From: Stx2-converting phage Stx2a_F451
Sequence record: AP012532
Direction: 5' to 3' (one strand)
Length of the DNA stretch: 64,000 nucleotides
The position numbers were made by a program. This document shows, piece by piece, positions 18,001 to 21,000 of the stretch; position 1 is the first letter of the stretch; each line of letters begins with the position of its first letter.

Positions 18001-21000
18001 CGGTATCAAGGATGACGATCACCATTTCGATGCCAAACGTGAGAAAAAATTCTCCAGACCTGACCGCAAGAAAATCGCCCGCTACGTTACCAGAACAGAA
18101 TCCCATCTTGAGTACCTGCAATCGCGTGGCATATCGCCAGAAATCGTAAAGCGCTACGAGGTTGTCAGCGGCAAGGTGTGGAATGGAGAGCGGGAACTGG
18201 ATGCTCTGGTGCTTCCGTACAAACGCGATGGTGAGTTGTTGCAGGTCAAGCGAATCAGCACTGAGCGCCCGGACGGGAAGAAAGTCATTATGGCAGAAGG
18301 TGATTGCGAACCTTGTCTGTTCGGATGGCAGGCTCTGGACGCTGGCGTGAGGGCGGTTGTACTTTGCGAAGGCGAAATTGATTGTATGAGCTATGCGCAA
18401 TACGGCATCTCGGCGTTATCCGTGCCGTTTGGTGGCGGGAAAGGCGCTAAGCAGCAGTGGATTGAGTTTGAGTATCACAACCTCGACAGGTTTGAGGAAA
18501 TATTCATCTCGATGGACGTTGATGATGTTGGTCGTGAAGCCGCAAGGGAAATCGCAAGCCGACTCGGTGAACATCGTTGCCGTCTTGTTACTCTGCCGTA
18601 CAAAGACATCAACGAATGCCTGATGAACGGTGTTACCGAGGATGAAATCTGGCAGTACATCGGCACGGCATCCTATTTCGATCCTGAAGAACTCTACAGT
18701 GCGCGAGAGTTTTACCAGGACACTATCAACGCTTTCTACGGCAAGAAGCAGTATCTGTTTAATCCACCGTGGGAATCTCTGGCAGATAAATTCCAGTTCC
18801 GTGAGGCCGAGTTGACGCTGGTCAATGGTGTGAACGGTCACGGAAAGGCATGCCCACTGAATGAGCCTATTCTTTTAGCTGATGGGACATGGACTACTCA
18901 CGGGGATGTAAAAATTGGCGATCAGGTGGCGTCAGTAGACGGCAATCCGTCAACTGTCACTGGGATATTCCCGCAGGGTGTTAGAGATGTTTACCGAGTC
19001 ACATTTGAAGATGGTCGTTATGTTGATTGCGCAGGCGATCACCTATGGGAGGTCACTAGTCGTGGATTCACGAAAGGCGAGAAACGCCGCGTGATTGACA
19101 CCTTCGAGCTGAAGCGGTTGAGTGAAACGAAGAGGCACAAAAATGGCGTTAGGATTCCTGAAATAACTGGTGACTTTGGCGACCACTCAGAGCCATTAGC
19201 ATGGGTTATCGGCTCCCTTCTCGGGGATGGTAGTCTTAGCAATGGGAGCGTGAAGTTTTCAAACGTCGAGCCATACATGATCGAGCGTATGAAGGCTGAA
19301 CTGCCTGATTACAACTTCTCTGGAGATGGTAAGGACTGGCTGATATCAACGGCGCGTGGTCAGGCAAATCCACTCATGGAGACCCTGCGAGGTTATGGAC
19401 TAATGGGGTGCACAGCAAAAAACAAATTCATCCCTCGTGTGTTTTTTTCCGCAAATAAATCAACGCGTATAGGCATGCTGTGTGGTCTGCTTGAAACGGA
19501 TGGGTATGTCGAGAAGGATGGAACGCTTGTTTTTTCCTCAGCAAGTGAAGAACTGCGCAATGGGGTTGTTCAACTGGTTAACTCACTCGGCGGGTCATGC
19601 CGGACGCGAGTTAAAACTGGCGTGACATACACATACAAGGACGATAAGCGGCATGGGATGGATTCATACGAGGCAAGAATCAGACTGACAAGAGAAATCA
19701 GGGAGGCCATCCGTTCACCACGACTCAATGGCAGATTAACTGCGCATCGATTCGAGGGCTGTGGGGTATTCGTCAGGAATGTTGAAAAAATCGGCAATGC
19801 AGAATGCTTGTGTATTATGGTCGATCACCCTCGCCACCTGTATGTAACCAGGGGATATGTGGCGACGCATAACACCGAGGTTGTCGGGCATATGGCACTT
19901 GAGGCAATGCGTCAGGGTGTGAAGACGTGCATCGCGTCACTTGAGCTGAAGCCTGGTATTCTCCTTAAGCGCCTTACCCGTCAGGCGACGTGCTGCAAGA
20001 TGCCGCCAGTGCTGGAAATTGACTCTGCATTTAAATTTTATGACGAAAGACTTTGGGTGTTTGGCCTGACCGGAACGGCGAAAGCCGACAGGCTGATCGA
20101 AATATTCGACTACGCTCGCCGCCGATACGGTATCCAGTTATTCATCATCGACAGCCTGATGAAATGTGGCATAGGCGACGATGACTATAACGGGCAGAAG
20201 GCGTTTGTTGACTCGATTTGCGACTTCAAAAACAAAACAAACTCCCACGTCATTCTCGTTACTCACTCGCGAAAAGGAGACAGCGAAGAAAAACCAACCG
20301 GGAAAATGGACGTAAAAGGCTCTGGAGCGATAACAGACCTGACAGACAACCTTTTCATCATCTGGCGTAACAAGGCTCGCGAGAGAGCGTTACAGAGAGT
20401 TCAGAGTGGTGAAAAGATGTCAGAGAAGGACGAACAGCTACTGGCATCTCCGGCATCTGTTTTGATGCTTGAAAAACAACGTAACGGCGAAGGTTGGGAA
20501 GGTGGTGTCCCGTTGTTCCTTGACGAGCAATCGCACCAGTTCCTGCAACTTGAATCAGGATCGCCATATAGCTACATCGCCAATATGCCGAAATCGGAAT
20601 ATGACGAGGCGTGGCGACAGGAAAACGTGACGGAGTATTAAATGAATAAAAAACAATTAGCCATTCTCGAAAAGGCATGGGATGCACAAATATCATACGC
20701 TTTGAAAGAACAGGCACTACCAATAATCCAGACCAAATCGAAAATAGCCAGGCAGTTATGCGATGGCGGATTCCTGAACGAAGTTGAGATTACGCGCCAG
20801 ATGGTAACGTTCAAAGGGTATGAGATAAATCATCATGGTATAGCAGCGTATTGTTCCCATCTTCCTGATGACGTTGACATTGATGAAATGGAAGGGGAGA
20901 TGAAGCAATGACCATCTACATCACTGAGCTTGTAACAGGCCTGCTGGTAATCGCAGGCCTTTTTATTTGGGGGAGAGGGATTGGAGGCTTTAAGAAATGA

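Follow-up and report, generated by a model that had tools for sequence, protein, structure and literature searches.

A predicted class 3 intein with a LAGLIDADG endonuclease domain in the P-loop of the primase–helicase of Stx2-converting phage Stx2a_F451

INTRODUCTION

The replication gene of the Stx2-converting phage Stx2a_F451 (sequence record AP012532) encodes a primase–helicase whose Walker A motif, or P-loop, is interrupted by a long in-frame insertion. All coordinates given here, unless otherwise stated, are those of a 64,000-nucleotide (nt) stretch of this record, read on one strand from 5′ to 3′ and referred to as the window. The precursor gene (17735–20641, plus strand) is a single uninterrupted open reading frame (ORF) of 968 amino acids (aa), comprising a Toprim primase and a gp4-type helicase together with the insertion. 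As judged from its sequence, the segment 18848–19873 is very probably a class 3 intein carrying a LAGLIDADG homing endonuclease, lodged between the Walker A Lys and Thr of this gp4-like primase–helicase. An earlier note on this DNA had described one open 968-aa frame whose middle reads GVNGHGKA, then HN, then TEVV, and had proposed an intein there; the frame and its landmarks are as described, and the intein is real and was correctly interpreted.

The element is, however, already known, and class 3 inteins in P-loop helicases are well described. Database comparison (megablast) finds the gene 100% identical in phages Stx2a_F403, phi24B (vB_EcoP_24B) and phiXuzhou21-Stx2a, and 99.7% identical in Min27. 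Because the phi24B gene is identical to window positions 17735–20641, the element was in effect published in 2012, and the novelty that the earlier note implied does not hold. Passages of that paper describe the phi24B P protein as a 968-aa polypeptide with TOPRIM and GP4d_helicase domains and an intein from residue 372 with a HintN domain, and name Min27 and a Shigella flexneri prophage as sources of orthologues (Smith et al., 2012, BMC Genomics 13:311, PMC3430580). The start at residue 372 agrees with ours; the published end, residue 702, falls 11 residues short of residue 713 found here. The same passages make no mention of a LAGLIDADG endonuclease, of the Lys/Thr site in the P-loop, or of a class 3 mechanism. 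What the present analysis adds are the exact boundaries, a resolution of which residue, Ala or Cys, comes first, the class 3 residues, an intact-looking endonuclease active site, the frequency of the intein in Escherichia coli, and a sister intein in other Stx2a phages.

INSERTION SITE AND INTEIN BOUNDARIES

The insertion falls exactly between the Walker A Lys and Thr (GHGK/T, where the slash marks the point of insertion). Alleles of the same gene that lack it show this directly. By megablast, the intein-less alleles of mEp043, Sf101, APC_JM3.2 and Stx2_EH2086/EH2085 are 98.4–98.7% identical to the window gene at the nt level, while those of epsilon34, ES18, g341c and others are ~87% identical; such alleles match 65% of the query, as two pieces. 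The intein-less gene is 1881 nt long against 2907 nt in the window, a difference of 1026 nt, or 342 codons. At the protein level, the intein-less versions read GVNGHGK-TEVVGHMA and are collinear with the window protein on both sides, at 94–99% identity. The N-extein (residues 1–371; 17735–18847, plus strand), which holds the primase/Toprim region and the start of the helicase and ends in GVNGHGK with the Walker A Gly-Lys, is 94–99% identical, up to K371, to the intein-less proteins of mEp043, Stx2_EH2086 and epsilon34. The C-extein (residues 714–968; 19874–20641, plus strand), comprising the remainder of the RecA-type helicase domain, is likewise collinear with the intein-less alleles. An in-frame insert at a conserved site, missing from collinear homologues, is what an intein should present, and the Lys/Thr position of the P-loop has been called a "classic" intein insertion site (Kelley et al., 2016).

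The boundaries can be read to the codon. The middle of the precursor runs LVNGVNGHGKA-CPLNEPILLADGTW...HLYVTRGYVATHN-TEVVGHMA, such that the insert begins CPLNEP after the Ala and ends YVATHN. The window junctions are GGA AAG / GCA TGC CCA at the upstream edge and CAT AAC / ACC GAG GTT at the downstream edge, and the DNA of the empty site is GGT CAC GGA AAA / ACG GAG GTT GTC. The intein-less site has the sequence GGTCACGGAAAAACGGAGGTTGTC, which in mEp043 and Stx2_EH2086 is GTGAACGGTCACGGAAAAACGGAGGTTGTCGGGCAT. Because the empty alleles run GK/T without an Ala, passing straight from AAA (Lys) to ACG (Thr), the Ala codon (GCA, 18848–18850, plus strand) belongs to the inserted element. The intein thus comprises 342 aa, Ala1 to Asn342 (Ala372–Asn713 of the precursor; 18848–19873, plus strand), as defined by the exact gap against intein-less alleles. 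With Ala372 as its start, the spliced P-loop takes the canonical form GxxGxGKT, and the predicted junction peptide after splicing is GVNGHGK-TEVVGHMALEAMR. The earlier note had correctly placed the insertion within the Walker A region and had held that homologous helicases aligning across it without interruption would speak against an intein; they instead leave a clean gap between highly identical exteins. Its length and starting point need revision, from 341 codons beginning at 18851 to 342 codons beginning at 18848.

SPLICING RESIDUES OF A CLASS 3 INTEIN

The first residue matters because it separates intein classes. By definition, residue 1 of a class 3 intein is not a nucleophile and co-varies with the WCT triplet, made up of Trp at position 12 of block B (B:12), Cys at F:4 and Thr at G:5, and position +1 is Ser or Thr (Tori et al., 2010, PMC2807308); the triplet positions are also given by Kelley et al. 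(2016). The window intein carries each of these: Ala1, which offers no nucleophile, Trp67 at B:12, Cys322 at F:4, Thr340 at G:5, and Thr at +1. Its block B signature, His65-Leu66-Trp67 (19040–19048, plus strand), aligns to HQW of the mycobacterial mini-intein MchDnaB1. Its block F Cys322 (19811–19813, plus strand), within the string ECLCIMV, is the predicted initiating nucleophile and aligns to the Cys in VRCVEV of MchDnaB1, where the block F Cys is Cys124 (Beyer et al., 2020). Both matches come from a phmmer alignment to class 3 mini-inteins. Block G, Thr340-His341-Asn342, followed by Thr714 (the +1 residue and the Thr of Walker A, codon ACC), spans 19865–19876 on the plus strand and is placed by sequence and by homologue alignment; the resulting ATHN/T terminus has the C-terminal Asn, the preceding His and the +1 Thr expected of an intein. 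Counted from Ala1, His65 and Trp67 bear the same numbers as in MsmDnaBi1 and MchDnaB1.

The same pattern recurs in homologues. An alignment of seven sequences (A3) contains the window intein and six phage homologues, from Klebsiella phage phiKp_30, the DnaB-like helicase of Stx2a phage 981509, Vibrio phage 1.161.O, Pseudomonas phage PhiPA3, Mycobacterium phage Pinkcreek and Parabacteroides phage PF672P1. All seven read G-K/A...T-H-N/T or S, with GK, Ala1, H-L-W, the block F Cys and THN invariant. Residue 2, in contrast, varies freely (C, C, M, Q, Q, E, L). From the protein database, a DnaB and a PhoH-like protein also show the GK/A...THN/T or S pattern, as do phage proteins annotated as DarB-like. 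Since the Ala is invariant and the next residue variable, the Cys that had been taken for residue 1 is the non-conserved residue 2 of the intein (18851–18853, plus strand). Together, these residues assign the intein to class 3 and not to the standard Cys1 inteins.

The competing assignment would make this a class 1 intein of 341 aa with Cys373 (18851) as nucleophile, leaving Ala372 behind in a rejoined P-loop reading GHGKAT; the earlier note had favored this Cys as the first residue while calling the choice ambiguous. There is some appeal to it: a Cys lies one residue past the Lys, followed by block A-like sequence, His-Asn and then Thr close the other end, and Ser1 or Cys1 is on record for three inteins that contain WCT (Tori et al., 2010, PMC2807308). 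Yet every intein-less allele reads GK/T with no Ala and the inserted DNA itself carries the Ala codon, Ala is invariant in the six homologous P-loop inteins while its neighbor is C, M, Q, E or L, and numbering from Ala places His65 and Trp67 where the solved class 3 DnaB inteins have them. The Walker A Thr coordinates Mg, and one extra residue after the Lys would displace it. Cys373 as residue 1 was rejected on the empty-site alleles and the homologue alignment, and the class 1 reading deserves next to no credence; the rejoined loop would be GHGKT.

HINT FOLD AND PREDICTED HOMING ENDONUCLEASE

The class 3 assignment is accompanied by recognizable domains. Inside the segment, the Pfam model LAGLIDADG_3 reaches 35.1 bits, its cut-off being 22.5, and a sequence search of the PDB returns MchDnaB1 (6rix, E = 6e-10), MsmDnaB1 (6bs8) and then the intein PI-SceI. 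NCBIfam matches to the segment are all weak, partial and far under their cut-offs; most of the models matched describe proteins that contain inteins, among them RecA, the tetraether synthase and a radical SAM protein. The Pfam and PDB sequence matches mark a genuine and specific intein signal.

An AlphaFold2 model of the 342 residues, built from a six-sequence alignment, reached a predicted local distance difference test score (pLDDT) of 85.8 and a predicted template modeling score (pTM) of 0.86. In the model, the N- and C-terminal parts are beta-rich and form a Hint fold, and the middle domain, a mixture of helix and strand at residues ~118–290, adopts the alpha-beta-beta-alpha-beta-beta-alpha arrangement of a homing endonuclease between the two Hint halves. 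Foldseek against the PDB places PI-SceI at the top (E = 2.5e-17; template modeling (TM) score 0.76, query-normalized), followed by the TliVMA and PhoVMA inteins and PI-PfuI, with partial matches to I-OnuI-type meganucleases. The Hint part alone matches MchDnaB1 and MsmDnaB1 with TM scores of 0.70–0.80 (target-normalized). The Hint and LAGLIDADG domains anticipated in the earlier note are therefore both recovered, the endonuclease above its profile cut-off and Hint through PDB sequence and fold matches.

Both LAGLIDADG motifs are present, as LAWVIGSLLGDG and RIGMLCGLLETDG, which align to LAYLLGLWIGDG and FLAGLIDSDG of PI-SceI. The first ends in LLGDG with Asp127 (19217–19231, plus strand), aligned to WIGDG of PI-SceI with its Asp218, and its LGDG is invariant in the seven-sequence alignment. 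The second ends in LLETDG with Asp218 (19487–19504, plus strand), covered by the Pfam LAGLIDADG_3 match and aligned to LIDSDG of PI-SceI with its Asp326. Because the motifs align, Asp127 and Asp218 correspond to Asp218 and Asp326 of PI-SceI, which we take to be its catalytic residues, and the active site looks intact. In the intein of Parabacteroides phage PF672P1, the second motif reads GLMDIGG and the catalytic acid is lost (alignment columns ~270–275), suggesting that the endonuclease of that lineage has been inactivated.

THE HOST HELICASE AND A PREDICTED SPLICING PATHWAY

The protein that would emerge from splicing is a T7 gp4-like primase–helicase. Toprim_2 matches precursor residues 209–296 in a Pfam search. 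Spliced in silico, the 626-aa protein aligns to the T7 gp4 primase/helicase over residues 192–539 (E = 3e-23), and to Twinkle (8.5e-14); there is no gap across the junction in the T7 gp4 alignment, and GHGKT stands opposite GMGKS (GSGMGKS). In Pfam, AAA_25 scores 28.0 bits against a cut-off of 27 over residues 357–507, and DnaB_C covers residues 355–594 (model positions 16–253 of 255), both reading across the junction. The unspliced precursor yields just a C-terminal AAA_25 fragment, and this model clears its Pfam cut-off only after in-silico splicing. The host protein hence has the order expected of the T7 gp4/Twinkle type, Toprim followed by a RecA-type helicase, with Walker A reading GVNGHGKT once spliced. 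By calculation, the precursor has a mass of 109.2 kDa, from which splicing would yield a 71.1-kDa product and a free intein of 38.0 kDa.

A pathway can be modelled on the published class 3 route (Tori et al., 2010, PMC2807308; Beyer et al., 2020; Kelley et al., 2018). With 38 kDa of foreign protein splitting its P-loop, the 109-kDa precursor would be unable to bind or hydrolyze ATP in the normal way. As residue 1 is Ala, splicing would have to be started by the internal block F Cys322, which would attack the Lys371–Ala372 bond to place a thioester branch on the intein. A Cys322-His65-Thr340 triad would activate Cys322, and Trp67 would pack the core. The N-extein would next be handed to the side chain of Thr714 (+1), cyclization of Asn342 would free the intein, and an O-to-N shift would leave a native Lys-Thr bond in a 626-aa, 71-kDa helicase with GHGKT. 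The endonuclease, for its part, would cut intein-less P-loop coding sequence when related phages or prophages share a cell, and repair would copy the intein in, the process of homing. We infer that protein splicing works, since the identical gene is carried by phages that propagate, as we take phi24B and Min27 to do.

Conceivably, the intein could be more than a parasite and act as a conditional switch on Stx-phage replication. In mycobacteria, oxidation of the catalytic block F Cys reversibly halts a class 3 DnaB intein that occupies this same P-loop site (Kelley et al., 2018), and passages of Smith et al. (2012, PMC3430580) speculated on post-translational regulation. The window intein has eight cysteines, of which Cys2, Cys61 and Cys320 lie in or beside splicing blocks, and by analogy metal ions or oxidative stress might trap Cys322. 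Were this so, such trapping would delay helicase maturation, and hence phage genome amplification and Stx2 output. We consider a switch of this kind unlikely.

A SISTER INTEIN IN OTHER STX2A PHAGES

A second, related intein resides in a different helicase of other Stx2a phages. The 797-aa DnaB-like helicase of Stx2a phage 981509 (LC487996.1; 1898–4291 of the compared stretch) contains a 339-aa class 3 intein with LAGLIDADG that is 50% identical to the window intein over its full length, including the endonuclease domain (~50%), and the same intein is found in ~49 further Stx2a phages (LC616xxx) and in TL-2011a. It reads AMALSEG...YIVTHN, and carries Ala1, HLW, CLCIMV and THN/T, with Met as residue 2. 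Its site in the P-loop is ARPGMGK/.../TELAL, and the empty DnaB-type site is ATGGGGAAA/ACGGAACTG. The two inteins therefore share the GK/TE position, but the hosts differ, the sister intein occupying a non-orthologous DnaB-type helicase from an alternative replication module. Both empty sites, that of the window gene and that of the DnaB-like helicase, encode G-K/T-E, and an endonuclease lineage that targets P-loop coding sequence would fit this pair of sites.

DISTRIBUTION, SELECTION AND ALTERNATIVE READINGS

Alleles with and without the intein coexist, and its distribution is sporadic, which, together with mosaic extein backgrounds, is indirect evidence of homing. The gene is present in 296 of 5426 complete E. 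coli genomes, 79 of which carry the intein; the ~217 empty alleles are 98–99% identical. A search with the intein by itself recovers these same 79 genomes, and every copy is complete, lies in this gene and has at least 99% identity. Beyond E. coli, a 98% identical gene containing the intein occurs in the P22-like Klebsiella phage phiKp_30 from sewage (782–3688 of the compared stretch), and tblastn with the intein matched 638 phage records. A protein-database search with the intein returned six matches, and the full-length protein is not among them. Database protein P0001 (203 aa, with 182 member sequences) comes from short contigs of Shigella flexneri and corresponds to part of the window intein at 99% identity; it fits the Shigella prophage inteins described as "partial Primase inteins" by Tori et al. 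(2010, PMC2807308). In P0005 (416 aa, metagenomic), a DnaB, the class 3 intein stops just past block B (SHLWEI), where a Phage_Mu_F-like domain takes over, and is thus broken.

The phiKp_30 gene is a mosaic. It shares the C-extein variants +2, +293 and +302 with the window, while its N-extein has 11 differences to that of intein-less mEp043 versus 23 to that of the window, in a comparison with few informative sites. Of the 26 nt differences between the two inteins, 13 fall in the first 41 nt (window 18850–18888). The pattern suggests gene conversion or recombination at the 5′ edge of the intein, and the mosaic of exteins would fit homing with co-conversion or ordinary lambdoid recombination. 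The codons at the junctions vary as well: The Lys codon (18845–18847) is AAG and the Thr codon (19874–19876) ACC in the window, AAA and ACG in all three intein-less alleles compared, and AAA and ACC in phiKp_30, with the next-nearest differences at least 40 nt away. AAG and ACC may be co-conversion markers or changes in the endonuclease target. Between the window and phiKp_30, the ratio of nonsynonymous to synonymous substitution rates (dN/dS) of the intein is 0.16.

Several observations count against reading the segment as a functional class 3 homing intein. Its N-terminus scores 26.3 bits with the Pfam model Hom_end_hint, against a cut-off of 32.1, and Hint models stay below their cut-offs. 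Position 7 of block B is Ala (AGDH), versus the Asp of mycobacterial DxxH. The 79 E. coli copies are all near-identical and, among the matches listed, come mostly from E. coli strains that produce Shiga toxin (STEC); they could reflect clonal or phage spread instead of active homing. The endonuclease domain has a dN/dS of 0.47 on 5 nt differences, too few to inform, so that recent constraint on the nuclease is not demonstrated. Finally, splicing and function of the phi24B protein were, according to passages of Smith et al. (2012, PMC3430580), yet to be experimentally determined, and our literature search found no experiment on the intein-bearing P protein.

One way to take these points is that the insertion is dead: Nothing splices, the helicase is inactive, and the prophage is either defective or replicates by other means. 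A literature devoid of splicing experiments would accommodate this, as would the partial intein copies in Shigella flexneri prophages. But the open 968-codon frame retains every splicing residue and both Asp residues of the endonuclease, the intein is full-length and nearly invariant in 79 of the 79 E. coli genomes that bear it, its dN/dS is low, and the gene is found unchanged in phi24B and phiXuzhou21 and at 98% identity in a sewage phage. We regard a dead insertion as highly improbable. A milder alternative is that the intein splices while its endonuclease is inactive. The element would then be kept only by the near impossibility of a precise deletion from the P-loop, and its spread would be purely passive, with the phage. 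The near-identity and largely STEC provenance of the E. coli copies would agree with this, the uninformative dN/dS of the endonuclease region leaves room for it, and at least one relative, that of the Parabacteroides phage, has lost a catalytic acid. Conversely, PI-SceI and the window intein have both catalytic Asp residues in common, along with the LAGLIDADG helices around them, the endonuclease domain has kept ~50% identity to that of the sister intein, and the extein backgrounds of the window intein differ, an unrelated phage, the P22-like one of Klebsiella, also carrying it. An inactive endonuclease is thus a possibility of some substance, though doubtful. An intein that splices and retains a homing endonuclease remains the preferred reading of 18848–19873.

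GENE CONTEXT AND ANNOTATION

The window is a Stx2a prophage. In Stx2a_F403, which carries the identical gene, the order is cI, cro, cII, an O-like gene, the intein-bearing gene, then ninB, Q, three tRNAs and stx2A. In the window, the three tRNAs lie at 25979–26230 and stx2A/stx2B at 26321–27561, which, with the identity of the gene to those of Stx phages, bears out the mobile Stx phage setting given in the earlier note. Base composition provides a mild contrast: The GC content of the intein is 0.494, with 0.48 at third codon positions (GC3), against 0.50–0.52 and a GC3 of 0.57–0.58 in the exteins, which does not strongly indicate a foreign origin. No tandem repeats were found inside the primase–helicase gene. 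The O-like gene (16848–17624) contains a 24-nt tandem repeat of 2.9 copies (17139–17202), which codes GGAGAA(R/L)GGAGAA...GGGAGAAP in the linker of a helix-turn-helix "replication protein O" homologue. Within 17663–20723, ORFs of 60–245 aa run antisense or out of frame to the primase–helicase gene, for example 17663–18400 (245 aa, TTG start) and 18416–18841 (minus strand); the compared records of the region carry no annotation for them, and they are treated as chance ORFs.

GenBank and RefSeq label the gene variously as "replication protein," "P," "DNA primase/helicase" or "toprim domain-containing protein," and intein annotation is absent from the public sequence records examined for it. In the Min27 records (EU311208.1 and NC_010237.1), the gene (14575–17483) is annotated as two coding sequences, "replication protein P" and "ORF31 / DNA primase." The Min27 match is 2909 nt long versus 2907 nt in the window, and the split is probably a frameshift or sequencing error. 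InBase presumably listed this intein as "EP-Min27 Primase," a name for which text searches gave no match. The split, or frameshifted, Min27 record accounts for the 87% protein identity to Min27 given by Smith et al. (2012, PMC3430580).

IMPLICATIONS

The practical value of these observations is limited. A feature table giving the intein (372–713), its class 3 assignment and its LAGLIDADG domain would avert misreading of the gene. For typing, the presence or absence of the intein in the replication gene marks lineages of Stx2a and related lambdoid prophages. A full-length class 3 intein with an endonuclease that is native to E. coli would also offer a convenient system for class 3 splicing and for homing between prophages. 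If splicing were conditional, replication of the toxin phage could be affected, which is speculation.

COMPARISON WITH KNOWN INTEINS

The nearest structurally characterized relatives are the mycobacterial DnaB inteins at site DnaB-b, Msm DnaBi1 (6bs8) and Mch DnaB1 (6rix/6riy), which interrupt the P-loop at the same Lys/Ser or Lys/Thr point. There the Walker A Ser serves as the +1 nucleophile (Kelley et al., 2018). The window intein shares with them Ala1, His65, Trp67, the block F Cys, the terminal Thr-His-Asn and the Hint fold. The mycobacterial elements, in contrast, are mini-inteins of 139–146 aa without an endonuclease, whereas the window intein has 342 aa and a LAGLIDADG domain; they reside in bacterial DnaB rather than a phage gp4-type primase–helicase, and have DxxH where the window intein has AGDH.

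The class 3 prototype, the MP-Be DnaB intein of mycobacteriophage Bethlehem (Tori et al., 2010, PMC2807308), is also phage-borne and of nearly the same length, 341 aa versus 342. Compared by its published description, it has Cys320, Thr339, His340 and Asn341 followed by Thr+1, against Cys322, Thr340, His341 and Asn342 here, and both inteins begin with a non-nucleophilic residue; host protein and insertion site differ. A local tblastn of positions 30000–48000 of the Bethlehem genome found no homologue, and the annotated DnaB-like gp62 of Bethlehem (273 aa) contains no intein; the class 3 intein of Bethlehem has been suggested to lie in gp10 TerL (Kelley et al., 2016). "Primase" inteins of Shigella prophages in InBase also lack an N-terminal nucleophile (Tori et al., 2010, PMC2807308).

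In overall architecture, the counterpart is PI-SceI, the VMA1 intein. It differs from the window intein in being class 1 (Cys1 and Cys+1), in its length of 454 aa, in possessing an extra DNA-recognition region, and in sequence, identity being ~15%. It nevertheless shares the two-domain layout of Hint and LAGLIDADG, is the top fold match, and has its Asp218 and Asp326 conserved in the predicted endonuclease of the phage primase–helicase intein.

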